Part shown: in pieces, positions 11,211 through 39,688 of the stretch
How the letters are laid out: every line of letters begins with the position of its first letter
Numbering within the stretch: the stretch's first letter is position 1
Source: a virus
Lineage: Duplodnaviria; Caudoviricetes
DNA length: 64,000 nt
Direction: 5' to 3' (one strand)
IMG/VR virus record: IMGVR_UViG_3300037840_000382
Location: 3,025 to 67,024 of that record
Program-made: the position numbers and the translations under genes
Notes under the pieces: model-generated
Told to the model about the DNA's origin: nothing
The model's database searches: none
What the model saw: the letters and a program-made list of their open reading frames with translations, nothing else

Positions 11211-11222
11211 GGAGGTTAGCCA

Positions 11223-12413: not shown

Positions 12414-12414
12414 C

Positions 12415-12639: not shown

Positions 12640-12657
12640 CCGGCGGGAGGACTGCCG

Positions 12658-14989: not shown

Positions 14990-15058
14990 TGGTACGTACT
15001 CCTACCAAGTATTTGTATGTACCTAGCAGGCACCGTGTTGTCAAGGGGAGAATTTGAT

Positions 15059-17883: not shown

Positions 17884-17892
17884 GGGTTGGAA

Positions 17893-18045: not shown

Positions 18046-18052
18046 GGCGCGT

Positions 18053-18514
18053 ATGGCCGTAACAGCTGAAATTGCAAAGCGCGAGGTGGTGCGAGAGCAA
18101 ATTGCGATGCGCCGGTTCGAGGTGCCTGATCTCGACCGCCACGGGGGTTGGATCACGGATCGCCTGCTCAAGGCGTATCCGCATCGCACCGCGCGCGATC
18201 TCGCGGGCTGGCTGCGCGGGATCATCTACTCGAACGAGTTTTTGTTCCTCTACCAGGAGCACGGTGTGGCGCTTGCGACGGTCACGCGCGCGCACCCGCT
18301 GGAGATGAAGCCCGTTGTGCAGGAGATGTTCGTGTTCGTTAAGGAGGGACACGATCGCGAGGCCGTCGCTTTCTACGACGAGTTCGTGAGGTGGGGAAAG
18401 AACCAGGGCGTCGATGCTGTGATGGTTGAGGCCATGAGCGATGTGCCGCACGACATGATCAAGGAGCGCATGGGGCGGCTGTTCACGCGGCAGGTCGTGT
18501 TTGCGAGGTTATGA
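18053..18514 (+). CDS. GNAT-like protein
   Basis: Size and position before the ejection genes as in P22-like phages; QEMFVFV...FVRWGK pattern. Confidence 0.55.
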   Translation: MAVTAEIAKREVVREQIAMRRFEVPDLDRHGGWITDRLLKAYPHRTARDLAGWLRGIIYSNEFLFLYQEHGVALATVTRAHPLEMKPVVQEMFVFVKEGHDREAVAFYDEFVRWGKNQGVDAVMVEAMSDVPHDMIKERMGRLFTRQVVFARL

Positions 18515-18526
18515 TAGGAGGCTGCC

Positions 18527-19480: not shown

Positions 19481-19481
19481 A

Positions 19482-25700: not shown

Positions 25701-25764
25701 TGGGGCGGGGGTGGGCGAGGGGCTAGAGCAGGCGCAGGAACCCGCGTTGGAGGGAATCGAGTAA
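22723..25764 (+). CDS. large internal virion / ejection protein
   Basis: 1013 aa; N-terminal tandem YxxxxxGxDFLDPxGNxRTKP repeat; GGAAVGG membrane-type stretch. Confidence 0.7.
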   Translation: MSDAYSSQLDAERSLLKERGLAAEPRAPMRDRPDIAYKAPPPKVTSQQEYDALSPGTDFLDPQGNTRTKPWSVADEDSYEAVPEGADFLDPRGNLRTKPRYESVDFTTHSLFNMAVNEREQRRALEHGYPGAEIRNDPKGLYVQERDGTRRRPRGPSEEHKSLAENWKAAGAAAVGGAFPTVGAVAGEIGGGLVSGLPGAVGGAAVGGAVGQGFNDAIMALAGVYDRSAGEEAMELGTSGVMAGAGTAVGRGVASVLPRMRGAKLGLPGAVAQFIGADPEGLNMAVGLADKGVLVPPSGWAKEAPHIQNVVEVFDPALHTQKPLLQSAEEHYERSKRGILGELGVPEHEVAGPTEAVSTERAGTAILVRAQAVAAEQDARLAAEHAARREGEVGAALGRAVGQAGEHSARVEGLRQAEVAARKAAENLIDVGFRDIQQDIDGAVKVSKAGGNSGDLWQMVGEKLKAVKQGIQARARKMYNEADALAGGHLPDMAGLPERAAQFLAELPEGFENRYPSIVKQIRDLAGVQKLDEHGVPTGEWEKEPATPTFGQLHNLRSVLRANYNHLDLTPDVKQGTFKFFANRVDEILNDPGAVPELQEAARALRAADDFYRDAIRPLTDKHIQAVVSGLESGMPADPKNLFDTLVREGRSDLTRTVARLVGPNLWAGVKAADVQAMLNASKTLVPDQIDGRAFARQVLERHRNASGDMLEAVHGREASAKLIEQARRIEMLGGRLEIPVRPGDTVTEIIARARAAGDAAKAVAKQDPLGTLKREMGGIEAAAKKESAELRAKRLAGPFGFLLKLTTGAAEAVDRILGSEDLILAAAARFGEDSPEFEMLRQVYAQRILQGTLEPGARLAKISPEVQRVMFPGVTLDQMQQLAREMDFLMSTRGTQGTAKSMAAVSKVEHPWASILGRGGAIAQLLTAPTKVVPGADAVGRAMLGGYYGFVRKFATSPAFLRWVQKGLDGDPAAREIVRQQVQKALQRGGAVGAGVGEGLEQAQEPALEGIE

Positions 25765-25912: not shown

Positions 25913-26154
25913 GCATAGACGACGATATCAGCACCCTTGCCGCCCACGTCGCGACCGAGGCGGTCAAGTCGGGCAAGGGCGCCCCTCGCTTTGGCGAGAA
26001 GGTGGATGCGCTCAAGACTTTGGCGGCGTATCTTGCTATAGTGAGCAAGAACCGCAGCAAGACGCCCGAGCGGGACGACACGCCGACCTTCGAGGACTTC
26101 GCGGCGCAGGTGGAGGAAGTGGGTAATGGCCGAGCGAAAGTTCGAGATAGTTGA
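25909..26154 (+). CDS. hypothetical protein
   Basis: Coupled ORF. Confidence 0.6.
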   Translation: MSIDDDISTLAAHVATEAVKSGKGAPRFGEKVDALKTLAAYLAIVSKNRSKTPERDDTPTFEDFAAQVEEVGNGRAKVRDS

Positions 26155-26380
26155 AGAGGGTGACGCCGAGCCGGCGGCCGTCGCCGGCGTGATGCTGGCG
26201 CTGCGCGCCCTCTCTCAGCGCGCTCTCGTGGCTGCTGCCGACCTTTTTTGTTTATTCACTGTGTTCGGCGCGTGGTGGCTGTGGTGGTCGGTGCCCGATC
26301 CGAATGCCTACCAGATCATCTCGCTTTCGATTTACGCGCTGTTCGTGCTTGCGGCCAACTGGATTGTGAGAAAGCGATGA
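26126..26380 (+). CDS. two-TM membrane protein
   Basis: Two hydrophobic helices; GGAGG RBS. Confidence 0.65.
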   Translation: MAERKFEIVEEGDAEPAAVAGVMLALRALSQRALVAAADLFCLFTVFGAWWLWWSVPDPNAYQIISLSIYALFVLAANWIVRKR

Positions 26381-26607
26381 TGTGGCGCGCGTTTATCGCG
26401 ATATTGCTGTTACTGCCCGCGGGAGTCTTGGCGCAAGAGCGCAATGTTACGTGGACCATAACGCTTTCTGAAGCCAACCAGATCATAAAAAAACTCGGCG
26501 AGGCGCCGTGGAACGAGGTCAACCCCTTATTGCAAAAACTGATCTCGCAGGCGAATACCCAACTCATTCCTCCAACAAAGTCGAGCGAGGAAAAAGAGGA
26601 AAAATAG
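26377..26607 (+). CDS. signal-peptide protein resembling small fibre-associated chaperones
   Basis: MMWRAFIAILLLLPAGVLA|QE; LGEAPWNEVNPLLQKL motif; ATGA overlap. Confidence 0.65.
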   Translation: MMWRAFIAILLLLPAGVLAQERNVTWTITLSEANQIIKKLGEAPWNEVNPLLQKLISQANTQLIPPTKSSEEKEEK

Positions 26608-26609
26608 CT

Positions 26610-27962
26610 ATGCTCCGCAAACTCGGGCTTGCCATCGCCCTGCTTTTACTAAGTTATGTCGAGGGGTCGGCGCAAGCTATTGTGCGTCTGTGTGTGACGC
26701 TAGGGGTTAATAACTGCCCCCCTGTCTCGGCGTCTAACCCTTTGCCTGTCACCGCCACGGTTAGCGCCACAGTGGGCGGCTTCGCGCCAGGAGGTGCTTA
26801 CGCAACGCTGACCGCCACCGGATCTTCGGCGACGGCCGCGCTGCCGGCCGGGATTGTTGTTGTCGCCTACAATACCGGGACGACAGCCGTTTCTTGCACG
26901 CTCGGTGTGACGGCGGTTGCCAACGAAGACCAGATAGCGCCAGGAGGGTTTTTTTCCTACACGGTCGGGGCCAACACCAATATCGCTTGTATCGACCAGA
27001 CGGGGACGGTTTCTAACCTCGTGGTTCTTTCGGGCGGAACGGGACTCGCTACGGGTTCCGGCGGTGGTGGCGGAGGCGGCGGAGGATCGTCAGCGATAAC
27101 GACCTGGGCTGGCGGCACCCTCGGCGCGATGGCGAATTACGGCACGTCGCCGGGGGCGGTTCTTGTGCCGGGCGTCAATGCTTTTATAACAAATACGCCT
27201 ACCGTTACCGCAAATGCTGGGACCAATCTTAATACCTCGACGCTCGCGACCTCTGCCAACCAGACGAACGCTTCGCAAAAATCCCAGGTTGTAGACGGCG
27301 CGGGCAACGTGATTGCATCGACATCGAACGCGCTCAATGTCGATGTCACGAATGTGAACGTTAATGGTCAAGCGACGATGGCGAATTCGTCGCCAGTTGT
27401 AGTTGCGAGTAATCAATCTAATATTCCAGTTAATGTTGCAGCTTTTGGTGGTACTGCAACTACGACAGGTCAAGTTGCAGTAAACACTGCTCCGGTTACG
27501 GCAACTAATACGGCGCTTGTGGTCGATCTCCGGCCGGATAGTCCAGGCATTATCACGCTTGGTCCTGCTGCTGCGGCGAACGCCGTTCCATTTGTTGGCC
27601 CTGCTCCGTCATCCTCGACATTGGTCGGTATCACGCCGATCGTGGGCGGTTCAGCGGTATCAAGTCTCGTTTTAAAGGCCAGCGCCGGCAATCTTTATAG
27701 TGTCTATGCTGAATGTTCGGCGGCATGCTGGTTGATGGTTTTCAACTCGACTTCGGCGCCGAGCAATGGATCAACTACGGCAGGCGTTGCGTCCGGCAAT
27801 ATGGTCGAGTGTATTCCGATCTCAGCCGGCGGTTTTGGATCGATTACTTATGCTAGCGCACCTGCTGTTTATTCGGTAGGGATTACTGCGGCGATTTCTT
27901 CCACGACTTGCGCGACGTTGACGCTTGCGACCACGGGCTTCATTCATGGCATGGTGATGTGA
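26610..27962 (+). CDS. Ala/Thr/Ser/Gly-rich fibre-like protein with signal peptide
   Basis: MLRKLGLAIALLLLSYVEGSA|QA; SASNPLPV and NSSPVVVASNQ fibre motifs; paired Cys. Confidence 0.75.
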   Translation: MLRKLGLAIALLLLSYVEGSAQAIVRLCVTLGVNNCPPVSASNPLPVTATVSATVGGFAPGGAYATLTATGSSATAALPAGIVVVAYNTGTTAVSCTLGVTAVANEDQIAPGGFFSYTVGANTNIACIDQTGTVSNLVVLSGGTGLATGSGGGGGGGGGSSAITTWAGGTLGAMANYGTSPGAVLVPGVNAFITNTPTVTANAGTNLNTSTLATSANQTNASQKSQVVDGAGNVIASTSNALNVDVTNVNVNGQATMANSSPVVVASNQSNIPVNVAAFGGTATTTGQVAVNTAPVTATNTALVVDLRPDSPGIITLGPAAAANAVPFVGPAPSSSTLVGITPIVGGSAVSSLVLKASAGNLYSVYAECSAACWLMVFNSTSAPSNGSTTAGVASGNMVECIPISAGGFGSITYASAPAVYSVGITAAISSTTCATLTLATTGFIHGMVM

Positions 27963-29362
27963 TGCGACGGATCGCTGGTGTTCTTTTTGGCCTACTTTTC
28001 GCGTTGTCGCCTGCCTACCCGCAGACTATAACGGCTTCGGCGCAGACAATGATTGTCGTCAATACGACGCCTGTTACGGGCGGGTCAAACGGCCAATGCC
28101 TCACGATCAGTAGCGGTACTGTGGGCTCAGGCGCATGTGGCAGTGGCGGCGGTCTCACTGTCGGAACCAGCACGATCACGAGCGGGACGACGACGCGCAT
28201 TCTCTATGATAATGCGGGAGTGCTTGGAGAATATACGCTGACCGGCAGTGGTACGGTCGCGGTGATGCAGACCTCGCCAGCGCTTGTTACGCCTGCGCTC
28301 GGGGTTGCGACCGCGACATCGGTTGCCATCGGCGGCTGTACGATAAGTACGGATGTGTTGTGTACATCAGGTACAGCAACGCTTAACGGCAAGACCATTG
28401 TCGCAGGTGGCAGTTTCGGTTTGAGTGGAAATATATCGGCGGCGGCATGGACGACAGCTGGCATTCGCTATGCCAATGTTACGGCGACGATGACAGATAC
28501 CACATCAAGCGGTACAGTTGCGAATGCTTATACAGATATTTTCGGCGGCAATACCGTTGCTGCATCGAATGCGACGACGTTCACGAATTATTATGGGGCA
28601 TATATTAAGGTTCCAGTAGCTGGAACCAATGTCACGCTTACTAAAGCTTGGGCGCTTGGCTCTGATTCGATTGCAGTGAATGGGGCTGGTTCCGCTGCGG
28701 CGCCATCGTTTGCGATGAATAATTTTGAAAATAATACTGGATGGTATGTTACCGCTGCTGGCAAGCTTGGTTTAGCTATTACGGGTGTATTGAAATATGA
28801 TTATGCGATAAGTAATTCAGGAACTCACACTTTTGCAGGGAATATTAATGTAAGTGGAAATATACTTGGTGGCAGTTACAATGCAGCAAGTGCTTCCCCG
28901 TTTATTTGGAACTCTAGAGGTATATTATCAAGTCCGGCTGCTGGAGCTATTCAATTCGGTAATGCTGATGCGGCCGCACCTGTCGCTCAAACAACGGAAG
29001 TTCAAAATGTTGTTGCTGGGACCAGCAATACGGCCGGCGCTAATTGGACATTAAAGGCATCGGCAGGAACAGGAACAGGTGCCGGTGGCGATATGTTGTT
29101 TCAGGTTGCCGCTGCCGGCACGACTGGTACATCTCAAAATGCTTTTGCGACTGCTTTCTCGGTTAGAAATACTGGTGTGATCCAGAACAATATCGTGTTT
29201 AGCGCCGCAGGAACGCCGCTTCCGACTTGCAACGGTGCCGCAGAAGGGTCTCGTGGCGCTGTTTCCGACGCTTTGACGCCAACGTTTCTAACCGCCTATG
29301 TTAGTGGCGGAACCACGCACGCCTCGGTCTACTGTGATGGAACCTCATGGAAAACGGACTGA
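27962..29362 (+). CDS. tail fibre-like protein with signal peptide
   Basis: MRRIAGVLFGLLFALSPAYP|Q; TSPALVTPALG and GSAAAPS fibre motifs; C-terminal VYCDGTSW. Confidence 0.75.
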   Translation: MRRIAGVLFGLLFALSPAYPQTITASAQTMIVVNTTPVTGGSNGQCLTISSGTVGSGACGSGGGLTVGTSTITSGTTTRILYDNAGVLGEYTLTGSGTVAVMQTSPALVTPALGVATATSVAIGGCTISTDVLCTSGTATLNGKTIVAGGSFGLSGNISAAAWTTAGIRYANVTATMTDTTSSGTVANAYTDIFGGNTVAASNATTFTNYYGAYIKVPVAGTNVTLTKAWALGSDSIAVNGAGSAAAPSFAMNNFENNTGWYVTAAGKLGLAITGVLKYDYAISNSGTHTFAGNINVSGNILGGSYNAASASPFIWNSRGILSSPAAGAIQFGNADAAAPVAQTTEVQNVVAGTSNTAGANWTLKASAGTGTGAGGDMLFQVAAAGTTGTSQNAFATAFSVRNTGVIQNNIVFSAAGTPLPTCNGAAEGSRGAVSDALTPTFLTAYVSGGTTHASVYCDGTSWKTD

Positions 29363-29366
29363 TCAC

Positions 29367-29711
29367 ATGAAGAAACAACTCTTGCTCGCTTCACTACTCG
29401 CCTGTCTTTCCCTGCCGGCCGTTGCTGATACGATCACGATCACGCTGACAACGCCTGCTGGTCTTTGTATGGCAGGCTGTTCGCGGACTTTCACTGATGC
29501 GGGGACGGCCAAACCTAACACCTTGCAAACCAATATCGTGCAGGTCTTCCAAGCCGGCTGCAATACCAGCATAAACGGAACGTGTACGGCTGCACAGGTT
29601 CTTAATTATTGGGCCGGAACTTTGCGCGATACATTCGTGGGGCAAGTTAATGCGTTTCAATTACAGGCGCTTCAGAATGCTGTGCCTTATGTGCCGATCG
29701 CGCCTAACTAA
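29367..29711 (+). CDS. small secreted-type Cys-paired protein
   Basis: MKKQLLLASLLACLSLPAVA|DT. Confidence 0.7.
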   Translation: MKKQLLLASLLACLSLPAVADTITITLTTPAGLCMAGCSRTFTDAGTAKPNTLQTNIVQVFQAGCNTSINGTCTAAQVLNYWAGTLRDTFVGQVNAFQLQALQNAVPYVPIAPN

Positions 29712-29719
29712 GGTGAAGC

Positions 29720-29980
29720 ATGCGAAGATTTCTAGTCATTCTGGCTTTGTTTGCGCCATCTTGTGCCGGCGCTCAGCAGTCCACGGTCAACATTCCGCTA
29801 ACGCTTGCCGATCAAGCGACGATCATTCCGCTGCTCTGTGAAGCGGCTCTTTACGGCTTTCGCATGAGGTTCCAGGATTTTTGCGATCTTGCGAAGGTCA
29901 AGCTGCCCGAGGCATTGAAGGCCGAGCGCGATGCGGCCGAGAAGACGAAGGAAAACGCCGGGGAGGAAAAGAAGCCATGA
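29720..29980 (+). CDS. small signal-peptide protein (chaperone-like)
   Basis: MRRFLVILALFAPSCAGA|QQ; charged C-terminal tail like 26377..26607. Confidence 0.65.
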   Translation: MRRFLVILALFAPSCAGAQQSTVNIPLTLADQATIIPLLCEAALYGFRMRFQDFCDLAKVKLPEALKAERDAAEKTKENAGEEKKP

Positions 29981-30882
29981 AACGGCTCACCGCCGTCATT
30001 GGTGTCTTCTTTGCACTTGCTGCTGTCGCTGTTCGCGCTGCTGGCTGGCTGCCGCTCGTCTCGGCCTCGACGGGCGGCGGAACTGGCTCATGCTCGCAAT
30101 CTCAAGCATTTTTTGCTCGTGCCAGCGCGACGCATAGTAACGGTGACGCGCTCGATACGCTGATCTGTACTGGGTTGGCCGGAAATTCGGCGACATGCAC
30201 GGGCGGCACCACGCTTTGGGATTGCGCTGATATCATTTATCTTCCAACGCAGCCGAACGTTACAGATGCCAAGCTTAACTTGAAATCTTCAAGTTTCAGT
30301 CTTACCGTCAACGGTTCGCCGACATTCACCGTTAACAAAGGGTATGTCGGCGCAGCCAGCGCAAACCTCGATACGGGTTGGCAGGCTGGTACCAACGGTG
30401 TTCGCTATACCCAAAATTCGATGGGGGCGTTTGCGTGGAAAGAGGGGGCCGCCACTTCTTGCGGCTCCGGGAACGCCTGCGGAGTGGCCTTTGGAGAGAA
30501 TGCGGCAACCGTTGCACTCGATATGTATCCGCATTTCTCCGACAATGGATATTATTCCAATATCCAGAGCACCACCGGTTTCTTCATGGGAACCGGGACG
30601 ATCAATGAGGCGAATTTTTACGGCTTCACGCGCAGCGTCAATGGTACTGGAATTGATTACAAAAATACGACTGCATTGTCTGCAGCGAATGCCGCAACGG
30701 CGCTTTTGACGGTTGATCTCCTTCTTCTTAATGACGGCGTTGCGGCTGGTCGCCAATTCACGACAACGCTCGGTTTTGTCTGGATCGGCGGCTTCCTCGA
30801 TACGACACCGGAAAGCAATCTATGTCACGCCGTCAATGTCTACATGACGGCCGTGGCCGGCGATGCTGGAGGTATTTGCTGA
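29977..30882 (+). CDS. ConA/laminin-G-like protein with signal peptide
   Basis: MKRLTAVIGVFFALAAVAVRA|A; PTFTVNKGY..NLDTG motif; paired Cys. Confidence 0.7.
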   Translation: MKRLTAVIGVFFALAAVAVRAAGWLPLVSASTGGGTGSCSQSQAFFARASATHSNGDALDTLICTGLAGNSATCTGGTTLWDCADIIYLPTQPNVTDAKLNLKSSSFSLTVNGSPTFTVNKGYVGAASANLDTGWQAGTNGVRYTQNSMGAFAWKEGAATSCGSGNACGVAFGENAATVALDMYPHFSDNGYYSNIQSTTGFFMGTGTINEANFYGFTRSVNGTGIDYKNTTALSAANAATALLTVDLLLLNDGVAAGRQFTTTLGFVWIGGFLDTTPESNLCHAVNVYMTAVAGDAGGIC

Positions 30883-32474
30883 TGCGCCGACTTTTTATTT
30901 TGTCAGCAATCGCCGCAATTTTACTGATCGTTAAGTTGGCGATTGCAGGATTTGCTATATTTCAAATTGGAACTAACAGTTCCAGTGGTTGTCCTGATGC
31001 CACTCCGGCTGTAGCTGGAGCTTTTAACCTCAATACCTGTACCTTCTTTGATCCGATGACGTCGCTTGCGACGATCGATGTCAATGCGACCAATGCCGCG
31101 CCGTCCACAGGAATAAACTGGTATACCCAGCAATCGTTAGGCGTGGCATCGTTTACCGCCGTCATCAGCGGCACGGGGTTAACTGCTTCATCGTCGAATA
31201 CGGCATCAAGCATCATCAAGGTGGGGCAGACGATTGGTCAAGGTAACGGAGGTTGCGGCCCTGTCGCCGGCACCACGATTACTGCGCTCGGGACTGGAAC
31301 GGGCGGCGACGGCACTTACACCGTAACTCCATCACAGACACTCGCCAGTTGTCAGGTACAGTCGTCCTTTGCTCAGGCTCCGAACACGATGACTGTCGGT
31401 GCAAACGGGCTGACGCTGTTAAATGTGTCTCAGGGCGATGCGAATTTCGGGCTTTCAACTTATACCGCATTGCAAATTCCGACGGGATCGCTCAATACTG
31501 TCGTCACGCCTTATCGTGGAATCTCGTTCACGAATGGGATGTATGCCAGGGCTTATATCACCTTTGATGAAACCAAGGCTCCGAATGGGATGGCTGGGCC
31601 GCCATGGCGCTGGAATGCATGGTGGATGGACTCTTTTCCTGGCACCAAATACGGCGGTCAATTTATCGAAACCGACAATTGTGACTGCTTTTCGAATAAT
31701 GGGAGCGTCTTGCTCAACAACTTTTTGCACGACATCAATTGCGGGCTGGTAAGTTCGTGTTCTGGGAACTCACTTACGGATATGTGGTTTGGCCAACCGC
31801 CATCGCGCTCGGCGGAATGCAATCCGGTGTTGGATGGCGTAACGTTTCACACCTTCGATCAACTCTGGGTGCCTCCATCGAAGAACAACGGCACGGGTAT
31901 TTATGCATATTTGGTGGACGCCGATACGTGCGCGGGTAATGCAGTATTCACCGGGTTCATAGATTCAAGCGACGGGGTTGGTACCAATCGTACCCTGCAC
32001 GTTACCTCGATGATTTCGACAGGCACAATTGCAGTTAATAGCTATATCGGTAATAGCGGGCCTCTTAATCTTGCGCGACGGGTTCTAGCTTTCGGGACTA
32101 ACGGAACAACGGGTGCGGGGACCACTGGCACCTATGCGCTTGAGTTCGATAGCAGCAGCAGCGTCTCGTCGTCGTTGATGATCGCCACTAATGGGAACAG
32201 TTGCGAATATTTTGCCCAGGGTTCTGGGAATAAGTCGCAGTGCAGTTATGATGGCGTCAACGCAAATACGACTTACGACGGCGCCTTTACGGCTGCCGAT
32301 CCGGGGAATGCCAGCGGCAGCAAGGGATTCACGCTGATCTTCAATGGTGGATGTACAGCATCTTATACGACCTCGGCTTGCAATGCTGGTACCTCGGCTG
32401 GCAACTGGCCATTTCACATTAAAAATGTGCAGGTCTGGCAGGGCTCTACGAGCGATAAGAATGTGCAGAATTGA
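30882..32474 (+). CDS. GH16/ConA-like Cys-rich protein with signal peptide or anchor
   Basis: MRRLFILSAIAAILLIVKLAIA|G; WNAWWM..ETDNCD..FHTF; two GTY-ending beta inserts. Confidence 0.7.
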   Translation: MRRLFILSAIAAILLIVKLAIAGFAIFQIGTNSSSGCPDATPAVAGAFNLNTCTFFDPMTSLATIDVNATNAAPSTGINWYTQQSLGVASFTAVISGTGLTASSSNTASSIIKVGQTIGQGNGGCGPVAGTTITALGTGTGGDGTYTVTPSQTLASCQVQSSFAQAPNTMTVGANGLTLLNVSQGDANFGLSTYTALQIPTGSLNTVVTPYRGISFTNGMYARAYITFDETKAPNGMAGPPWRWNAWWMDSFPGTKYGGQFIETDNCDCFSNNGSVLLNNFLHDINCGLVSSCSGNSLTDMWFGQPPSRSAECNPVLDGVTFHTFDQLWVPPSKNNGTGIYAYLVDADTCAGNAVFTGFIDSSDGVGTNRTLHVTSMISTGTIAVNSYIGNSGPLNLARRVLAFGTNGTTGAGTTGTYALEFDSSSSVSSSLMIATNGNSCEYFAQGSGNKSQCSYDGVNANTTYDGAFTAADPGNASGSKGFTLIFNGGCTASYTTSACNAGTSAGNWPFHIKNVQVWQGSTSDKNVQN

Positions 32475-32480
32475 CGCGAG

Positions 32481-34925
32481 GTGATCGTGAGTGAAGAGTT
32501 CGTCGGTCCTTTTGCCAGCTGGTCTAACCTCAAGCGTGACTACGGTGCGAAGGGCGATGGCATTGCCGACGACACGGCAGCCTTGCAGGCGGCGGTGAGC
32601 GATCTCACAGCGACCGGTAAACCGCGCAACCTGTTTATCCCGTCCGGGACCTACCTCGTCACGCAGACCATCACGCTGCTCGGTGGTCTCGGGGCGGGCA
32701 TCATCGGCGCCGATCCCGCGACCACAACCTTTAAGTGGGGCGGCGCCGCTGGCGGCACGTTGCTTCATCTGGATGGCTGCGGCTACGGGCGACTTGGCCG
32801 GCTGACCCTAGATGGGGGGCGCAATACGACCGTTCTGGTGGATCAGAATGCGCTCGCTAGCGGACCACCGCGCCAGTTCGGTACGGGAAACGAGTACGCG
32901 GACCTTATTTTTCAGAACGCCTCAATCGGGATCAGGGCTGGAGAAGCAGGTATCGGGGAGGCTGAGAGTACAGTCCTACGCTGCAAGTTCCTCGGCCTTA
33001 AGAATGGCGTCCTGCTACTAAATGGCAATTGCTTGGATTGGTGGCATTGGTTCTGCGAATTCATGAATTGCCGAACCGGCATCGCCAATACTCCGCAGGA
33101 CAACATTGCAGCCGGTGGCGCGGGCATGTTCCACGCCTATGGCTGCCAATTCACCGGCTCGACGTTCGCTGATATCCAAATTGGCAACACCGGAAATTTC
33201 AATTTTCGTGATTGCTATTCGAGAGGATCACGGCAGTTTCTCAATGCGGTCTTCTACTACACCAACGCCGCGCAGACTCGTGTGCAGAACTGCGTTGCCG
33301 ACAGTGGCATCTACATGGGCAACGGCGGCCCGCTGCTAATCACGGATAGCATGATCGCCGGCCCCGTCACCGTGACCTCGTCCAACGGCGGCGACATCAT
33401 CTCTGTCGGCAACAAATACACGGTCTCGCCGACAGCTAGCCGGTTGCGCTCTGTCGATGACGCGGTTGTGCCCTCGCTGACGTTGCCACCGACGCTGGTG
33501 TTGCCGCCTGCGCCCCCGCTGACGATCCGTAGGGTCTTCGAAGTGCCGATCACGGACGACGGCACCGCGCTCCAAGCTGCGATCACGCAAGCTGCGACGC
33601 TCAATGGCAGCAAGCCCGTCGTGCATATCTCGGTTGGCACGCTTGCGCTGCGCAAGCCGATCACGGTGCCGGAATGCGACGTACAGATCATTGGTGATGG
33701 GTGGCCGAATACGATCATCGACTGTGGTAACACGCCGGGGATCGGCATCGACATCCAGGGACGATCGCGCGTCACGTTGAGCGACTTGCACATCAAAAAT
33801 GTGATCGATACAGCGATCACGATTGAGGACGCCTTCTTTGGCCGCGTTCTCCTGCAAGAGCCGATCTTCATCGCAGCGAGCGTCGCTGGTCTCTTCGTCG
33901 ATGGTGTAAGCTCTGCAACGGTCGAGCTGCGTGACTTTAACTTTGAGAACTGTGCGGTCGGTGCTCAGATTGAAGGCGGTGTTGCATCGCTGACGGCGCT
34001 TCTCGCCGGTTCTGCCGACCTCAACGTGACTAACGTGCTGGCTGACAGCGCAAACGTCGTCGTGCGTGACATGTGGAACGACACGCCTACAGGTGGGACA
34101 ATCAACCCGGTCTTGGTGTCGGTGATGGGTGCAAGCCAAGTTACGGTCGAGGGCTGCGTCCACAATATGCAGTCGGCCGGGGCCGTTGCTGTCTCTGGTC
34201 CTGCCGAGGTCTTGAACACGACGTTGGGCGGCGCTGTCAACTACGCCATGTTTGTGGGCGGGTGCAGTTTCTTGTCGGCGTTCACGACAGCGCCTTACGC
34301 TGTGGGGGCAGGGACGCTGGAGAATCGCCTTTACGATACGACCAATGGCTCGACGCCCATCGCAGACGCCGTGGTGGCGACTGACGCTCAGATACGCGCC
34401 GCGTTGGCGCAGTCGCACGCTACGCATCCGACGCTGCCGGCCGATCTGCCAGCTGGAGCTACCGATGTCAGGCTATCTCGTGTTACAATCGAGAACTGCA
34501 AGACGGGCATCCGCATCAAGGGAATCAACATGGCAACGATCGATCCGACGACGCTCGCGCAATTGCAAAGCATTCGTGCGGGGATTGCAGCTCAATTGGC
34601 TCTTCTCGACGGAGTCATCGCCAACGCCACAGGTCTTCCTCCGGGAACTACGTCTCCTCCTGGAACCACGATCAGCGGCACGACCGCAGTAGGAGGGGCA
34701 ACCATTACCGATGCTGCGGGACACGTCTGGTCGCTTGGCACCGCGGCTCCCTACGGCTTTGTCATCCTCCGGGACAACGTGCCGTTTGCCAATGGGAGCG
34801 GTGCCTCGCTCACGATCGACAAGGTCGGTATTGTGTGGACCAAGAACAGCCAGGGCAATTGGTACGTCTCGACCTCGTCAGGCTGGAACTCGTCGCCCGG
34901 CAATGCCCCTCCTGTAACCGCGTAG
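32481..34925 (+). CDS. pectate-lyase-3-like beta-helix tailspike / depolymerase
   Basis: YGAKGDGIADDTAALQAAV..FIPSGTY; second DDGTALQAAI repeat. Confidence 0.8.
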   Translation: MIVSEEFVGPFASWSNLKRDYGAKGDGIADDTAALQAAVSDLTATGKPRNLFIPSGTYLVTQTITLLGGLGAGIIGADPATTTFKWGGAAGGTLLHLDGCGYGRLGRLTLDGGRNTTVLVDQNALASGPPRQFGTGNEYADLIFQNASIGIRAGEAGIGEAESTVLRCKFLGLKNGVLLLNGNCLDWWHWFCEFMNCRTGIANTPQDNIAAGGAGMFHAYGCQFTGSTFADIQIGNTGNFNFRDCYSRGSRQFLNAVFYYTNAAQTRVQNCVADSGIYMGNGGPLLITDSMIAGPVTVTSSNGGDIISVGNKYTVSPTASRLRSVDDAVVPSLTLPPTLVLPPAPPLTIRRVFEVPITDDGTALQAAITQAATLNGSKPVVHISVGTLALRKPITVPECDVQIIGDGWPNTIIDCGNTPGIGIDIQGRSRVTLSDLHIKNVIDTAITIEDAFFGRVLLQEPIFIAASVAGLFVDGVSSATVELRDFNFENCAVGAQIEGGVASLTALLAGSADLNVTNVLADSANVVVRDMWNDTPTGGTINPVLVSVMGASQVTVEGCVHNMQSAGAVAVSGPAEVLNTTLGGAVNYAMFVGGCSFLSAFTTAPYAVGAGTLENRLYDTTNGSTPIADAVVATDAQIRAALAQSHATHPTLPADLPAGATDVRLSRVTIENCKTGIRIKGINMATIDPTTLAQLQSIRAGIAAQLALLDGVIANATGLPPGTTSPPGTTISGTTAVGGATITDAAGHVWSLGTAAPYGFVILRDNVPFANGSGASLTIDKVGIVWTKNSQGNWYVSTSSGWNSSPGNAPPVTA

Positions 34926-34938
34926 GAAGGCGCTCACC

Positions 34939-36036
34939 ATGAGCATCCAACCTGCCACGCTTGCAGCTTTGCAGCAGATACGAACAAGCATCGGTGCGTC
35001 AGATGATGCGTTGAAGGCAATACTTGATCCCATGCAGGTCGTGCTTGATGCTACGCCGCCCCCGCAGGCGATCGCTCACGGCCTGACCAAGCTGCTTTTT
35101 CAGTCGGGGCCGTTTGCTGACCTGTCGCGCATTGACATCAGCAATGCCAACACCTCGACCGCCTCAACGGACTGGTGGGTAGCTAACAGCTATATCGGGC
35201 AGCCGGGAGAAAACCCGGCCTACGGGTTGATCCCGGACATCCCCGCGAGCGATCTGTCGGTCAACGGCGGCATTCTCAGGATCGCCCAGGCGCGACCCGG
35301 CGCCTATTTCCAGAACAACCAGCCGTCATTGTCCAGCAACTACTTCCCTGGCAGCTTCGGCCGGTCAGATGGCCCGAACGTCGATGCCATCAATCACGGC
35401 AGGTTCTTCCGACCGCCGTGGTACATCGATATCCAGTTCACATTCGACCAGCGCCTCGCGCGCGGCAGTGCGGGCTTTCCTGCTTTCTGGGCGGTCAACT
35501 GGTGGAACAAAGCTTACCCACACGTTGTTGAATGGGACTTCTTCGAGTTTTTCCCCCAGACGCGGTTCGCGGGCCTTTCAGTCGAGTCCGGCAAGGGCGG
35601 CTCGTTCGGTTTCAACTGCGGCGACTTCTCGAACAACGTCACGACCTATCCGCCGCTTCAGAGCGGCCAGTTTCCACAACCGATGTTCGCTGACCTCGGC
35701 AATCCAACCCTTGATGGGACCGACCTGCACACGGTAGGTCACCTGCTGATCGACACAGCGACCGGGGGCGGGACAGGCTTCTCGGAGCGGTACTTCGACG
35801 ATATCCAGTTCGGACCGAACCGCTTGACGTACTCCCGCACGGCACCGCCGAGCTACCCGCCTGGGGCTCCGGCCGGCACATTCTCATCGTGCGAGAATGT
35901 GGCCAACAATCCCGATTATCTTGGTTATTCGCTATACGTCACTTGCGGCAACCAACCGGGTGGCGGCGACTGGCCGCTTTCTGTAAGGCGCGTGCGAGTG
36001 TATGGCCCTGACGATAGCACCATGGTTGTGGTGTAG
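34939..36036 (+). CDS. GH16-like glycoside hydrolase / lectin
   Basis: FPAFW and intact ExDxxE motif (EWDFFE); C-terminal VRRVRVY. Confidence 0.65.
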   Translation: MSIQPATLAALQQIRTSIGASDDALKAILDPMQVVLDATPPPQAIAHGLTKLLFQSGPFADLSRIDISNANTSTASTDWWVANSYIGQPGENPAYGLIPDIPASDLSVNGGILRIAQARPGAYFQNNQPSLSSNYFPGSFGRSDGPNVDAINHGRFFRPPWYIDIQFTFDQRLARGSAGFPAFWAVNWWNKAYPHVVEWDFFEFFPQTRFAGLSVESGKGGSFGFNCGDFSNNVTTYPPLQSGQFPQPMFADLGNPTLDGTDLHTVGHLLIDTATGGGTGFSERYFDDIQFGPNRLTYSRTAPPSYPPGAPAGTFSSCENVANNPDYLGYSLYVTCGNQPGGGDWPLSVRRVRVYGPDDSTMVVV

Positions 36037-36039
36037 CCG

Positions 36040-36528
36040 ATGGGTCTTGTCCAGCAAAGCGGCAATATTACTCCAGGGCATCTGCCTGTGTGGGTCGCGC
36101 CAGGCGTCATTGGTGACGGCGGCGCAGCGCTCGCAGCTCAGCGCGTTCTCGCCTCGCTACGCGGCGCCAACTTTAACACGACCAGTGACCAGCCGATCGC
36201 GATCCCGCAGCGCGTAACGGCCTTTGCGCTTACCGGGATCATAGTGACGAACGCCTCGCTCAATTTAACGGCAGCCGTGGGCGGGTTCTACCCGCAGGCA
36301 GCGAAGGCGGGCACGCCGATCGTGGCAGCTGCGCAGGCGTACTCGACGCTTACGACCGCCAACGCGCTGCTTAACGCCACGCTCGCGGCGTTCGGGAGCG
36401 GCACGCGGTTCTCGTCGGCGAACCTCGGGACGATCGGCGGGCTGCTCAATATTTGGTTCGCGCTTACGACGGCTCAGCCCGTCGCGGCGACGGCGGATAT
36501 CTACCTCGTGGGTACTGACCTGACTTAA
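36040..36528 (+). CDS. virion-region protein
   Basis: N-terminal QSGNxTPGH..W...GVIGDGG shared with 37112..38503. Confidence 0.7.
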   Translation: MGLVQQSGNITPGHLPVWVAPGVIGDGGAALAAQRVLASLRGANFNTTSDQPIAIPQRVTAFALTGIIVTNASLNLTAAVGGFYPQAAKAGTPIVAAAQAYSTLTTANALLNATLAAFGSGTRFSSANLGTIGGLLNIWFALTTAQPVAATADIYLVGTDLT

Positions 36529-37043
36529 GCTGGTACCGGAGCACCCATCGGGGGCGGGGTCTCATGCTCTTTGCTCTGGGCCCCAAACCACGGTTTTGCC
36601 GGAGCAGGAGCAGTTGAAGGCGCTTCGACTTTTCCGGGTCGCGCCTGGGCGACAGGAGCGATTGGATGCGCTTCCGTTTTTGCCGGCGGTTTATCGATCT
36701 TGCCGCCAAGTGCCCCAATGGCACCTTCCGTTATGCGCACTCGCGCTTCCAGCTCGTCGAGCCGGTCATCGTGAGCAAGCGGTTTGCTCTCTATGGCGTC
36801 CTGGCGCTTCTTGAGATCGGTCCGATCGCGCTCCAGTGCTGCGATAACGGCGCCGTTGTCAACGAGCTTCGTTTCATGCGCCGCCACCTGGACTCCGCTC
36901 TTGATGTGCGCCAGCTCGAGGTTTTCCAGTCGCTGTCGCACATCGCGCATGGCGTCCACGAACACGTCGAAGTGACGGTTCATCTCGACGGAGCTTGGGC
37001 TTTTCTCCAAATTGTCTACGAAATCCTCTAAGGTGGAAGGCAT
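36525..37043 (-). CDS. coiled-coil protein (antisense orphan)
   Basis: AGGAGA RBS; heptad pattern; Pro-rich tail. Confidence 0.65.
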   Translation of the reverse strand: MPSTLEDFVDNLEKSPSSVEMNRHFDVFVDAMRDVRQRLENLELAHIKSGVQVAAHETKLVDNGAVIAALERDRTDLKKRQDAIESKPLAHDDRLDELEARVRITEGAIGALGGKIDKPPAKTEAHPIAPVAQARPGKVEAPSTAPAPAKPWFGAQSKEHETPPPMGAPVPA

Positions 37044-37111
37044 GCGCTTGTTCTCCTGTTTGCTAGCCAGCGAGTTGTAAACGAGTTTTGGGTAGCGTAA
37101 AAGAGGCTTCC

Positions 37112-38503
37112 ATGAAAAAAATCCTTGCGATTCTAGCCGCTCTCCTCGCCTCTCTCCCCGCGAGCGCGCAGCAAGTTCGGCAGAGTGGCAACGTCACGCC
37201 GGGTCACGTCACCAAGTGGATCACAACGGGTGTCATCGGTGACGGCGGGCCCGATCCCGCGGGCGCCAATCCAACGAGCCTCAACGCGACCGCGAGCGGT
37301 TTCGGCATATGCCAGTTCAGCGGGTTCTTTTCGGGTCCCTACAACCGCCTCTGTTTCAACGTCACCGGAACCGGCGGCGGTTTCGCGCTTGATAATTTCG
37401 GCGGCGCGACTGGCGGTTTCACCTGGACTCTCAATGGTGTGACGCAGGGATTGCCTATCACTACCGGCCTCCCTGTCACCATCAACGACTTCGCGTGCTT
37501 CTCAGACACTACCGGGGACCTCAAGGATTGTGGCAACACCAATGGCGTTAACAGCGGTACGATTAACCAGCTTGCATGGTACGCCGCGAGCGGCGCAGTG
37601 GTGTCGGGACTCGCGACTGCCAACAATGGCGCGCTCGTTACGTCGGCCGGAGGCGTGCCGTCGATCTCGTCCACGCTCCCCGCGGCGGTGCAGGGAAACA
37701 TCACGACCGTTGGGACGATCGGGACCGGCGTATGGCAAGGAACCGCCATTGCTGTTGGTTTCGGCGGTACAGGACTCACGGGTGGCACCAGCGGGGGCGT
37801 TCCCTATTTCAACTCCGCTAACACGCTAGCATCGTCGGGCGCGCTTATCGCAAACGCAGTCATGTTGGGCGGAGGCGCTGGTGGCGCCCCAACCGTGAGC
37901 GGTTGCACGATCGACGCGAACAACACGGTCTCGTGCGCCTCAAGCGTGACTGCCACTCCAGCGCACGTCAACCAGAATACGACTTCCGATGCGTCAGCTG
38001 CTTCCTACAATCTCCAAAAGAACAGAAGCGGCGGCGCGGTTCTCAACAGCGATGTGCTCGGCATCGTCAATTTCAGCGGCTTCTCGAACGCCGCTCAGCG
38101 CAATGCGGCACAGATACAGGCGAGCGTCTCCGCGGCGCCGAGCGGGAGCAACGTCCCGACCAAAGTGCAAATTAGCACAAGCAACGCTGCCGGTCTTAAC
38201 AACCAATCGCTCACGTTTGACAATAATGGACATCTCTCTAGCGTCTCCACAAGCGTGCCCGTCGTAAACACCTGCGCGGGATTCGCGCTTGGAACAGGAG
38301 CGACTGATTTTGCTGGACGCGCGACATTTACCAGCAATGCTAGCACTTGCTCGTTCAATTTTGGCACCGCGTTTGCAAACATACCGTTTTGCACTGTTGC
38401 TGCTCCCGTAACGACCAACATGACTGTAACTGCGACTACCTTGACTATAGGGTTCGTGAGCGCGGCAGCGACGACAGCGTCCTGGATTTGCATAGGAGCA
38501 TAA
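37112..38503 (+). CDS. tail fibre-like protein with signal peptide
   Basis: MKKILAILAALLASLPASA|QQ; ITTVGTIGTGVWQGTAIAVGFGGTG fibre repeat; C-terminal WICIG. Confidence 0.8.
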   Translation: MKKILAILAALLASLPASAQQVRQSGNVTPGHVTKWITTGVIGDGGPDPAGANPTSLNATASGFGICQFSGFFSGPYNRLCFNVTGTGGGFALDNFGGATGGFTWTLNGVTQGLPITTGLPVTINDFACFSDTTGDLKDCGNTNGVNSGTINQLAWYAASGAVVSGLATANNGALVTSAGGVPSISSTLPAAVQGNITTVGTIGTGVWQGTAIAVGFGGTGLTGGTSGGVPYFNSANTLASSGALIANAVMLGGGAGGAPTVSGCTIDANNTVSCASSVTATPAHVNQNTTSDASAASYNLQKNRSGGAVLNSDVLGIVNFSGFSNAAQRNAAQIQASVSAAPSGSNVPTKVQISTSNAAGLNNQSLTFDNNGHLSSVSTSVPVVNTCAGFALGTGATDFAGRATFTSNASTCSFNFGTAFANIPFCTVAAPVTTNMTVTATTLTIGFVSAAATTASWICIGA

Positions 38504-38509: not shown

Positions 38510-39688
38510 ATGAGCGACCGGACCCGCACAGCGATCGTTTCATTCCTCGTTATCTTTGGCTATTTGGTTTTCGGCTACCTGCTGCTCACTGGCTGGATCA
38601 AGCCTGACGTTTCCGGCGACGTAGCCCTGACGCTGACCGGGGGCGTGTTCGGCGTTCTGACGGCCGGGTTCTGCTGGGCGCTGGGCTATGAGCTTGGATC
38701 GAGCGCAGGGAGTCGTGCAAAGGACGCACTGATCGCCGGACAGCTCCCGCAAGTTCCTGTCGTGCCTGCGCCGAGTCCGCCGGTGAGCGTTCCGCAGCCG
38801 TTCCCAACACCGAAACCTATCCCTGAACCAGCCACGACGCGCCAGACCGGCATCACGGCCACGGAATTCGGTGGCGCCTCCGACCCCAATACCAGCGCCT
38901 ACGACAACCACATCATCAACGACACCGAGATGGGTGTCGCCCTGCCCTATCGTTTCCCAGGCACGCGGCCCCGGGTGCATGTCTGGGGACCGAAGGGCGA
39001 TACCGTCTGCGATATTGTGGATGTCGGCCCTTGGAACACGCACGATCCCTATTGGCAGACCGGCGGACGGCCCCAAGCCGAGACCGGCACCGACATGGGT
39101 GGTCGTCACACCAACCTGGCCGGCATCGACCTGACACCCGCAGCCGCGCGCGCCGTAGGCATCGACGGCAAGGGAAGTGTCGATTGGGCATTCGAGGGCT
39201 TGAGCGCACCCGCTGCGACGGTCCCTGCCGGCGTGGCAGGCGAACCTTCATGGCTCACCCTCGCGCGCGCAGAGATCGGCTTTCACGAGCTGCCTGACAA
39301 CCACGGCATTCAGAAATACGTGGACCTCGCCGGCTACGGCGCCGATGGCGAGCCGTGGTGCGCGATCTTTGCCGGAGCGATGTTGCGCAAGGCCGGCATC
39401 ACGCTCACAGGCATTAACGCAATGGCGCGCAGCTTTATGACCTCTCCAGCCTTTACCAAGATCGACACGCCGCGGCTGGGCTGTCTCGCCGTGTTTTGGC
39501 GCGGGTCTCCGTCCGGTACTGAAGGCCACGTCGGTTTCTATGTCGGCGATGCTGCGACTGGGCGCATCAATGTCCTGGGGGGCAATGAAAATGATCAAGT
39601 GATGATCGAATCCATCCCGATATCCGGCTCCACCATGGGACTGCTCGGCTACTGGTGGCCAGCTTCCACTGAGCCCAAGGTGATCTAG
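38510..39688 (+). CDS. membrane-anchored two-domain endolysin: holin-like TMs + RlpA-like DPBB + TIGR02594/CHAP-like peptidase
   Basis: Two TMs ending GSSAGSRAKD; IVDVGPWN..GIDLTPA; PWCAIF..GHVGF..LGGN. Confidence 0.8.
   Translation: MSDRTRTAIVSFLVIFGYLVFGYLLLTGWIKPDVSGDVALTLTGGVFGVLTAGFCWALGYELGSSAGSRAKDALIAGQLPQVPVVPAPSPPVSVPQPFPTPKPIPEPATTRQTGITATEFGGASDPNTSAYDNHIINDTEMGVALPYRFPGTRPRVHVWGPKGDTVCDIVDVGPWNTHDPYWQTGGRPQAETGTDMGGRHTNLAGIDLTPAAARAVGIDGKGSVDWAFEGLSAPAATVPAGVAGEPSWLTLARAEIGFHELPDNHGIQKYVDLAGYGADGEPWCAIFAGAMLRKAGITLTGINAMARSFMTSPAFTKIDTPRLGCLAVFWRGSPSGTEGHVGFYVGDAATGRINVLGGNENDQVMIESIPISGSTMGLLGYWWPASTEPKVI

Follow-up and report, generated by a model that had tools for sequence, protein, structure and literature searches.

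Predicted export leaders and paired cysteines on tail-fibre-type proteins of a tailed phage

Eight open reading frames (ORFs) in the fibre region of a tailed, 67-kb and apparently virulent phage begin with predicted export leaders, and even numbers of cysteines were found in all seven of the mature products that contain any. Judged from sequence comparison, it is very likely that these products use the Sec pathway for export and form disulfides in the periplasm. For the exported proteins to join particles once lysis merges the compartments we see about an even chance, and the whole model, in which exported and oxidised fibres dock late onto particles built in the cytoplasm, is likewise finely balanced. 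The window analysed here is the whole stretch of 64,000 nucleotides (positions 3,025 to 67,024 of IMG/VR record IMGVR_UViG_3300037840_000382). The phage has DNA polymerase, primase and helicase genes of its own, and its major head protein match is phrog_9953. The region comprises the following features:

26126..26380, + strand: two-TM ORF, 84 aa, two hydrophobic helices
26377..26607, + strand: A, 76 aa, leader end VLA/QE, no Cys, acidic/lysine tail
26610..27962, + strand: B, 450 aa, leader end AQA/IV, 8 mature Cys
27962..29362, + strand: C, 466 aa, leader end SPA/YP, 6 mature Cys
29367..29711, + strand: D, 114 aa, leader end AVA/DT, 4 mature Cys
29720..29980, + strand: E, 86 aa, leader end AGA/QQ, 2 mature Cys
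29977..30882, + strand: F, 301 aa, leader end VRA/AG, 8 mature Cys
30882..32474, + strand: G, 530 aa, long hydrophobic leader, 14 Cys
32481..34925, + strand: H, 814 aa, leaderless, 14 Cys, pectate-lyase-like beta-helix (tailspike type)
34939..36036, + strand: I, 365 aa, leaderless, 3 Cys, domain in common with G
36040..36528, + strand: J, 162 aa, leaderless, no Cys
36525..37043, - strand: K, 172-aa ORF between J and L
37112..38503, + strand: L, 463 aa, leader end ASA/QQ, 10 mature Cys
38510: two-TM lysin, membrane-anchored, passes the leader heuristic

The leader genes and structural genes are packed together on one strand, with stop codons overlapping the next start, and the former sit within the late structural block, not among early genes. 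The ORF starts given in the original prediction are borne out, four of them being fixed by overlaps with the upstream stop (ATGA at 26377 and 29977, TGATG at 27962 and 30882), while gaps of 2, 4 and 8 nt precede 26610, 29367 and 29720; ribosome sites of GGAGG or AAGGTG type were seen by eye ahead of 29720, 29977, 30882 and 37112. The ATGA at the start of A is shared with the 84-aa two-TM ORF, homologs of which directly precede the first leader gene in the related but diverged loci L083, L085, L086 and L087, and which is a candidate holin-like protein or membrane partner. B is the first large gene past the two-TM protein in the window, as it is in these four loci and in the likewise diverged L111. 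In L110 and L111, as in the window, a C-type fibre gene is followed by a D-like gene. A search for a lipobox ORF (spanin) in 38.4-42.4 kb found none. The leader cassette is mosaic, its GC3 is low (0.45-0.56 vs about 0.7-0.8), and it is also present in L094, an unlike low-GC contig.

Leaders were called with a strict heuristic of our own, as were cleavage sites and, with a crude caller, genes. By this heuristic all eight N-termini have the basic n-region, hydrophobic core and mostly AxA-type site that had been claimed for them: one or two K/R and no acidic residue stand ahead of the core, the best 10-residue Kyte-Doolittle mean is 2.67-3.14, and in seven leaders, 18-23 residues long, a short core is followed by small residues at -3/-1. 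The core of G is unusually long and resembles a TM helix, and may be a signal anchor instead of a cleaved leader. Among 74 genes called in the window six passed (B, C, F, G, L and the lysin at 38510); A, D and E, which lie below the caller's size or GC3 limits, were checked separately. Outside the fibre block the heuristic found no leader start in the window except that of the lysin, and as background it passed 14/424 ORFs of at least 250 aa and 14/559 ORFs of 80-249 aa in 77 unrelated viral loci.

Leaders recur in homologs, with the N-termini of metagenomic members resting on third-party gene calls. They were found in all nine members of the G family, at 38-64% identity, and in 108 among the best 120 matches of B, and they persist in homologs down to 38% identity. 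In relatives of E only 12-14 of 18 leader residues are identical although the mature part is 97-100% identical; in relatives of F the leader is near identical and the body merely 31-32% identical. No conserved lipobox is present in the leader proteins, and a lipoprotein nature of E, which is a paralog of A (E 8e-4), was ruled out by a homolog in L084 with Tyr in place of the leader Cys. Among 50,697 GenBank phage records there was no match to B, G, J or L. The profile of B matched one of 301 bacterial genomes (one order), on a 12-kb contig, and the B family is, by these profile matches, phage-specific.

Even cysteine counts follow the leaders. Mature counts in A, B, C, D, E, F, G and L are 0, 8, 6, 4, 2, 8, 14 and 10, amounting to 52 in 2326 mature residues vs 16 in 5037 aa of the block 9547-25764, and parity is random in the other Cys-containing window genes (even in 24/48). 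The closely spaced pairs quoted originally are present (CVTLGVNNC, C28/C36 of B; CMAGC, C34/C38 of D; CGSGNAC, C162/C168 of F), and the 766-aa putative nozzle, whose PHROG matches span only residues ~100-290, is indeed nearly Cys-free (2 Cys). Even mature counts were obtained in 9/9 homologs of G, 105/108 of B, where an N-terminal Cys loop is common, and 60/70 SP-bearing homologs of F. In alignment A1, Cys125/157 are gained or lost together, as are the four Cys 267/269/287/293, and inserts carry Cys in pairs. Against the model stands H, with 14 Cys and no leader. Paired Cys alone need not imply the periplasm, since virion disulfides can also arise by oxidation after release, according to one report (PMC13576161).

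A natural contrast is offered by the C fibre family, compared after removal of 11 close relatives. All 38 SP-bearing homologs have at least two mature Cys and 37 an even number, whereas 21/71 SP-less homologs are Cys-free and only 20 of the 50 with Cys have an even number, i.e. random parity (Mann-Whitney p 7e-13, Fisher p 4e-9). Leaders and Cys pairing are, by this comparative evidence, under selection, with the predicted leader function kept while its sequence drifts. The proposal of export and oxidative folding is thereby strongly supported, as Cys are gained and lost in pairs and pairing tracks the leader within this family. Peptidase_S74 is an intramolecular fibre chaperone domain, and its 10 carriers in the C family all have a leader.

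Homology places C, G and L with tail fibres, as had been suggested from their motifs, and B more weakly. C belongs to a tail-fibre shaft family and ends in a conserved module of ~130 aa containing a Cys pair. Residues 85-165 of G match phrog_38233, a tail fiber (E 5e-12), and its central domain is paralogous to I, the N-terminus of which is similar to the C-terminal part of H; the structure model of G had low confidence (pLDDT 55.5) and no significant fold match, its GH16/PL14-like leads being weak and not significant. The central ~120 residues of L are a motif of long viral fibre ORFs, found in 369 viral stretches, in ORFs of 424-1766 aa at the 13 matched loci inspected, and the ~215-aa C-terminal domain of F also terminates proteins of 1000-1580 aa. 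B has a disulfide loop near its N-terminus and, at about aa 55-150 and 340-450, two jellyroll domains separated by a Gly-rich low-complexity middle, and nearly all of its 51 BFVD jellyroll matches at E<=1e-3 are from tailed phages. Leader proteins of L083 include one with Peptidase_S74 and another with an SGNH esterase.

The junction between leader and fibre is informative as well. A profile built from the N-termini of 15 SP-less fibres matches the homolog P0199 at residues 22-68 (E 2e-12), directly past the predicted cleavage at residue 21, and the homolog P0211 at residues 23-59; in both, a predicted leader is fused exactly ahead of a canonical fibre N-terminal module. In the window, the motif of the first ~28 residues of J recurs at the mature N-terminus of L. 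Genes for J-like proteins lie directly upstream of an L-like leader-bearing fibre in relatives; in the window the two are split by K on the opposite strand. In L083, L086, L087 and L111 all fibre-module ORFs past the large Cys-free proteins are leader-bearing (the L086 ORF at 13845 only by eye), except the J-like protein of ~160-200 aa; the fifth locus, L085, stops inside the module after two leader-bearing ORFs.

In the model favoured here, the eight products would be exported via the Sec pathway, signal peptidase I would cleave at least seven of them, and folding would take place in the periplasm, where the seven Cys-containing ones would acquire structural disulfides. B, C, F, G and L would be tail-fibre or receptor-binding-type proteins and A, D and E small exported partners, A and E having originally been put forward as chaperone-like. 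Heads and tails would meanwhile be assembled in the cytoplasm from near-Cys-free proteins, and the oxidised fibres held in the periplasm until the compartments merge, docking via their mature N-terminal modules after holin lesions or lysis. Whereas export and oxidative folding, as first proposed, are well founded, attachment at or after lysis is the most conjectural step; it is strengthened by the J-like protein being the only leaderless ORF in four of five relatives and by the leaders ahead of fibre N-termini. We know of no precedent for post-lysis joining in tailed phages, and it would need high efficiency.

The main rival to virion attachment, possible but distinctly less probable than the favoured model, has the proteins exported and disulfide-bonded but never in the virion, acting at a late stage on the envelope of the infected cell itself. 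Working from the periplasmic side, they might bind, mask or cut surface polysaccharide or receptor, leaving progeny untrapped by debris and superinfection blocked, or they might be set free as depolymerases or decoys when the cell lyses. Export and disulfide evidence fits this equally, and the window phage retains H, I and J as leaderless receptor-binding candidates, so that infection would be possible without the exported set; in the four relatives, however, only the small J-like protein would remain for receptor binding. The SGNH esterase and the G leads would suit glycan-modifying enzymes, and accessory genes often resemble this mosaic, low-GC3 cassette shared with L094, but the leaders precede modules that in leaderless fibres stand at the very N-terminus and have no obvious use outside a virion, the Peptidase_S74 homologs are leader-bearing throughout, and the genes lie in the late structural block. 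Lysogenic-conversion genes are argued against by the near absence of the B profile from bacterial genomes.

An extracellular structure past the outer membrane, a fibre/pilus-like appendage or secreted complex that is built or decorated, is improbable; this alternative, offered in the original prediction, drew its only support from the weak jellyroll fold likeness of B. The top PDB matches are Bacillus Ena subunits (8pdz_A, E 4e-3; 9i0y; 7a02), which form disulfide-linked pili, and an N-terminal Cys loop is shared by B homologs, but no PDB match reaches E<=1e-3, TM is 0.34-0.40 on target, and cupins, PirA and other generic jellyrolls stand alongside them. Moreover, the block showed no gene resembling an usher, secretin or sortase, and C, G and L are homologous to fibres. 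Least probable of all are buried tail anchors or inner-membrane assembly tethers on proteins folded in the cytoplasm, as the long core of G might suggest: cleavage is predicted by our own heuristic, but seven leaders have the short core, small -3/-1 residues and length of a cleaved leader, their sequence drifts with its character maintained, and even, pairwise gained or lost Cys that track the leader across families are unexplained by cytoplasmic folding.

Among known systems, tail fibres and tailspikes (T7 gp17-type fibres, P22-type tailspikes, endosialidase-type fibres with Peptidase_S74) resemble the present proteins in their location past large internal-type proteins, in modular, mosaic evolution that conserves N-terminal parts while bodies are exchanged, and in common shaft motifs and domains, with the pectate-lyase-like spike H adjoining here. 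In P22, spike addition is the last, separable assembly step. Filamentous phages likewise have virion proteins with leaders, Ff pIII and pVIII being cleaved and matured on the periplasmic side and pIII containing disulfides, but they are extruded across the envelope and lack a capsid in the cytoplasm, unlike this tailed phage with a head protein and replication genes. T5 Llp and Cor are superinfection-exclusion envelope proteins, as is P22 SieA (PMC10461980). Such proteins are also targeted to the infected-cell envelope and often encoded beside the receptor-binding gene, but they are small, either lipoproteins or inner-membrane proteins, and are made early or by the prophage, whereas those described here are large, fibre-homologous, late and devoid of a conserved lipobox. 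Late use of host Sec and the periplasmic oxidising machinery is shared with phage lysis proteins, namely endolysins of the secreted or SAR type and spanins that have periplasmic disulfides (PMC7143992, PMC13412088); these lysis enzymes and membrane fusogens measure about 100-200 aa, in contrast to fibre homologs of 300-530 aa. Ena appendages share jellyroll subunits and stabilising disulfides with B, but the resemblance is generic and weak, sequence comparison found no relation, the organism and the assembly are different, and in B a long low-complexity stretch links two jellyrolls.

Phage particles are normally built in the cytoplasm. To our knowledge, known tail fibres are without signal peptide and fold there, and no description of tail-fibre-type proteins bearing export signals was found in the literature; the fibre-type proteins described here differ in having Sec-type leaders and paired Cys, which most leaderless homologs of the C family lack. 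The occurrence of leaders and paired Cys on nearly all fibre-type proteins of this phage and of several uncultured relatives suggests that they fold in the periplasm instead of the cytoplasm.

The eight ORFs and their starts were confirmed in the window. As originally proposed, overlaps set four of the starts (ATGA at 26377 and 29977, TGATG at 27962 and 30882), and three others follow gaps of 2-8 nt. The ORFs are listed here with their predicted SPase I sites, which lie at positions 18-23 (a slash marks the cut), and with the number of cysteines in the mature protein, i.e., after predicted cleavage:

A, start 26377: leader-bearing ORF, site VLA/Q, mature Cys 0
B, start 26610: leader-bearing ORF, site AQA/I, mature Cys 8
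C, start 27962: leader-bearing ORF, site SPA/Y, mature Cys 6
D, start 29367: leader-bearing ORF, site AVA/D, mature Cys 4
E, start 29720: leader-bearing ORF, site AGA/Q, mature Cys 2
F, start 29977: leader-bearing ORF, site VRA/A, mature Cys 8
G, start 30882: leader-bearing ORF, site AIA/G, mature Cys 14
L, start 37112: leader-bearing ORF, site ASA/Q, mature Cys 10

Signal peptides had been predicted for all of them, and all eight N-termini indeed combine a basic n-region, a hydrophobic core and small residues at -3/-1 by a strict rule of our own, which was used throughout for leader calls and cleavage sites in place of SignalP. The n-regions hold one or two K/R and no D/E ahead of the core (8/8), the best 10-residue KD mean of the h-regions lies between 2.67 and 3.14 in all eight, and the cores are short in seven; that of G extends over about 22 residues, and its leader may be a signal anchor. 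Out of 74 genes called crudely in the window, six passed the rule, namely B, C, F, G, L and a two-helix lysin at 38510, the leaders of A, D and E having been checked apart from this crude call. Its background pass rate was 14 of 424 ORFs of at least 250 aa in 77 unrelated viral loci. A conserved lipobox ([LVI][ASTVI][GAS]C) at the leader end was absent from the eight leaders. E and D were considered as lipoproteins and rejected: the leader Cys of E is replaced by Tyr in the homolog at contig locus L084, and that of D is not conserved in loci L110 and L111.

Homologs devoid of leaders had been named as evidence against export, and by our rule all G homologs and most of the B homologs examined carry leaders as well. 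In the G family, eight full-length homologs of 38-64% identity were found, and all nine sequences bear a leader, the leaders being barely alignable. The B family comprises at least 636 proteins (E<=1e-3); 108 of the best 120 passed the rule, and among the other 12, nine are leader- or anchor-like by eye and three are cut N-terminally. Leaders were further called in 47 of the best 120 of 1070 C-type proteins and in 70 of the best 149 of 877 F-type cluster representatives (both E<=1e-3). E and its close relatives are 97-100% identical in the mature part, yet in only 12-14 of 18 leader residues. F displays the reverse pattern, with 19-20 of 21 leader residues identical to those of its relatives and a body identity of 31-32%, and its leader resembles a conserved junction for the exchange of fibre bodies. 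As judged from these comparisons, the leaders are under selection. Three of the nine G-family members (P0003, P0004, P0007) share an extra C-terminal tail of about 23 residues, which is missing from the other six.

The cysteines of the leader-bearing proteins behave like those of disulfides as far as their numbers and their gain or loss in pairs can tell. The pairs originally quoted were found again in B, D and F, and the 766-aa protein described as nearly Cys-free holds two. The mature Cys count is even in all seven Cys-containing proteins of the eight, as compared with 24 of the 48 other Cys-containing genes of the window, and 52 Cys occur in the 2326 mature residues of the eight versus 16 in the 5037 residues of the block 9547-25764. 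Even counts also prevail in the G family (9/9) and the B family (105/108, binomial p 1e-27), and among the F homologs in 60 of 70 leader-bearing versus 53 of 79 leaderless proteins, the latter including zero-Cys proteins. Along the G alignment, each sequence has either both or neither of Cys125 and Cys157, the set of Cys 267, 269, 287 and 293 is likewise present or absent as a whole, and insertions add Cys two at a time.

The strongest test of the association between leader and cysteines was the comparison within the C family, for which 11 close relatives of C were removed from the best 120 of the 1070 matches (E<=1e-3), leaving 109. All 38 leader-bearing members possess at least two mature Cys, with an even number in 37; among the 71 leaderless members, 21 have none, and only 20 of the 50 Cys-containing ones have an even number (Mann-Whitney p 7e-13; Fisher p 4e-9). 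Leader and paired Cys thus go together within one homologous fibre family. Virion disulfides can arise after release, too, according to PMC13576161.

The tail-fibre character of the bodies, part of the original prediction, was upheld by a PHROG match of G, carriers of Peptidase_S74 in the C family and a widespread motif in L. Residues 85-165 of G match phrog_38233 (tail fiber, E 4.7e-12). Peptidase_S74 acts in endosialidase-type fibres as a self-cleaving chaperone domain, and all ten of its carriers among the C-family members have a leader. At locus L083 it is found in a 571-aa leader-bearing protein, the leader-bearing neighbour of which combines an SGNH esterase with an FN3 domain. The central part of L (about 120 residues) recurs in 369 viral stretches; 13 were looked at among 77 loci that are not near-identical, 12 of them leaderless and one (L011) leader-bearing. 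None of B, C, F, G and L was assigned to a Pfam or NCBIfam family in its own right, and the only family matches of the eight were the fibre PHROG of G, a PHROG of unknown function for F and weak NCBIfam matches confined to the leader of D. Atlas look-ups of C and E returned sub-threshold viral clusters only, some with Mtd_N. For A, D and E no family match supported an identity as fibre chaperones.

Structure searches added little for G, I or L, for which the PDB sequence search revealed no relative. G yielded an AlphaFold model of low quality (pLDDT 55.5), and none of its Foldseek matches was significant; PL14 and GH16 enzymes rank high among these and serve as a lead only. The model of B displays two well-modelled jellyroll domains (pLDDT about 95-97) and a disordered middle; its 51 matches in BFVD (E<=1e-3) are nearly all uncharacterised tailed-phage proteins, and those in the PDB are weak and generic with Ena pilus subunits on top. 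B as a disulfide-linked pilus subunit of the Ena type received no significant support (best E 4e-3, none <=1e-3, target TM 0.34-0.40). In a sample of 301 bacterial genomes from a single order, the B profile matched one, on a 12-kb contig; being nearly absent there, the family belongs to phages and not to the normal bacterial secretome.

The leader genes are packed within the late structural block, and a scan for promoters and terminators at 22-41.5 kb detected no clear separate unit. They directly follow genes for two large Cys-free proteins, which by size and position only are taken as internal virion proteins, and precede the pectate-lyase-like spike and the lysin, in the same order as in relatives. 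A D-like gene follows a C-type fibre gene in the window, L110 and L111, and the similar A and E precede B and F, respectively. On the minus strand at 36525-37043, a 172-aa coiled-coil-like, proline-rich ORF splits the pair formed by L and the leaderless J, which is contiguous in relatives. At 32472-32483, a single TGA and two codons separate H from G in a common reading frame; in L082 and L084 the two genes overlap in different frames, so that chance is more probable here than readthrough.

The GC3 of the leader genes at 26508-32474 is 0.45-0.56 versus about 0.7-0.8 in most other genes of the phage, which fits recent module exchange. The same C-D-E-F-G cassette was found at 4423-8982 of L094 (IMG/VR, 26.8 kb), where its GC3 is 0.36-0.63 and that of the other genes 0.13-0.27; its C, D and E are 83-100% identical to those of the window. 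This would reflect either transfer of the cassette among very dissimilar phages or a chimeric assembly.

Leader-bearing ORFs also occur in or near fibre regions of unrelated viral contigs, with 748, 502 and 297 aa together at L011 4525-12062, 1685 aa at L078 5936-10993 and 707 aa at L080 2000-4123, and the habit may reach well beyond the lineage of the window phage. On a 222-kb contig of an uncultured alphaproteobacterium (L089 8047-16848), phage-tail-like genes are joined by those of two leader-bearing proteins, one of 825 aa and one of 1208 aa with 36 mature Cys, and by that of a 288-aa protein with a twin-arginine-like start; this looks like a chromosomal, prophage-like instance. Another leader-bearing protein of about 240-270 aa is conserved downstream of the lysis genes (L086 18951-19757, L087 21082-21834, L111 16321-17046, L110 16324-17049), its mature part starting with ADMPVKAP- in the first three and with ADLRLKAP- in L110. 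It matches no Pfam family, and its reading as an outer-membrane barrel (ADMPVKAPP- start), and hence as a host clue, received no support from Pfam and was dropped.

The window covers bases 3025-67024 of a single virus record 67,024 bp long. Its source is a tailed, apparently virulent phage, as indicated by the match of its major head protein (phrog_9953), its genes for a family A DNA polymerase, a primase/VapE protein, a helicase, an exonuclease and an RNA ligase, and the lack of tRNA genes in the window. Most of its structural proteins are without family matches. IMG/VR includes near-identical contigs of about 67 kb and relatives in which the 1013-aa protein encoded ahead of the fibre block is about 50% identical. 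Among GenBank phages, tblastn found nothing for B (or its homolog P0154), G, J and L, and two short matches for C; one of the two lies in Bradyrhizobium phage ppBjS10J-1, where the large proteins next to it bear no leader. The host leads point to alphaproteobacteria only, candidates being those of acidic soil or peat, as suggested by a contig of a Roseiarcus MAG and by the match in the Bradyrhizobium phage. The host is presumed to be diderm, although a lipobox scan of 38.4-42.4 kb detected no spanin-like ORF. The gene directly after L (38510-39688) encodes 392 aa, with a pair of hydrophobic helices at the N-terminus, then a linker rich in proline and a CHAP/tail-lysozyme-like C-terminal part (phrog_1259, E 2e-25; CHAP, E 1e-4, which misses the Pfam cut-off); the product may act as an endolysin or as an ejected lysin. 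A 222-aa ORF with many CxxC pairs at 14321-14989 (minus strand), placed between structural genes of the opposite strand in a low-GC stretch (14001-16000, GC 0.48), looks by eye like an HNH-type homing endonuclease.

As to whether the exported proteins become part of the virion, a profile covering N-terminal residues 1-48 from 15 C-family fibres that lack a leader matches residues 22-68 of the leader-bearing homolog P0199 (E 2e-12), beginning exactly past the predicted cleavage at residue 21, and also residues 23-59 of P0211; processed proteins would accordingly start where ordinary fibres start. Likewise, a motif of about 25 residues is common to the mature N-terminus of L and the N-terminus of the leaderless 162-aa J. 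A J-like gene lies immediately upstream of an L-like leader-bearing fibre gene in the relatives L083, L086, L087 and L111, and in L086 the J body reappears, by eye, as C-terminal domain of two leader-bearing fibres. The main alternative, unlikely yet deserving of attention, is that the exported proteins act on the envelope of the infected cell or go free as enzymes and never enter the virion. The leaderless H (the pectate-lyase-like spike, 32481-34925), I (34939-36036) and J (36040-36528) leave room for such a role in the window phage. In L083, L086, L087 and L111, however, every ORF of the fibre module past the large Cys-free and two-helix proteins has a leader except the J-like one (the leader at 13845 of L086 passing by eye only, and L085 ending after two leader-bearing ORFs), and with the exported proteins off the virion these phages would keep a protein of about 160-200 aa as their sole candidate fibre. 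A surface appendage, suggested originally as the other option, fits the data poorly and is improbable; that the N-termini are anchors with no part in export fits poorly as well and is more improbable still.

In the favoured reading of virion fibres, fibre-type proteins would be exported by Sec and their leaders cleaved, followed by DsbA-type oxidation and folding of trimers in the periplasm, a sequence of events predicted with high confidence; for export and cleavage, the even Cys counts speak indirectly. Heads and tails would be assembled in the reducing cytoplasm. Docking of the periplasmic fibres onto these particles, when the two compartments become one through holin lesions or lysis, is a step we infer and consider evenly balanced. 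In lysis of the lambda type, large holin holes open earlier than the outer membrane fails, which would allow a short phase of confined mixing. Taken as a whole, it is a tentative proposal, to which we give slightly less than an even chance, that widespread tailed phages (at least one diverged lineage and several unlike uncultured phages) build their virions across two compartments, with fibres Sec-exported, oxidised and trimerised in the periplasm and docking only at holin-mediated merging, and that fibre families switch repeatedly between a cytoplasmic few-Cys and an exported paired-Cys style by gain or loss of a leader before the docking module.

Virion proteins of tailed phages are held to fold and assemble in the cytoplasm, and a literature search of full-text articles retrieved no account of Sec-exported tail fibres in these phages; the new element would be tail fibres taking a route of export and oxidation. 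For annotation this matters since leader-bearing fibre-like genes may now pass as host-like secreted or 'auxiliary' genes, and for the production of such receptor-binding proteins the rule would be periplasmic or oxidising expression. Even if the exported proteins stay off the virion, so many exported, phage-specific homologs of fibres represent uncharted biology. If the proposal is true, tailed phages would possess an unrecognised final assembly step, the infectivity of progeny would depend on the Sec and Dsb systems of the host, and fibres hardened by disulfides for harsh soils or bogs would be explained.
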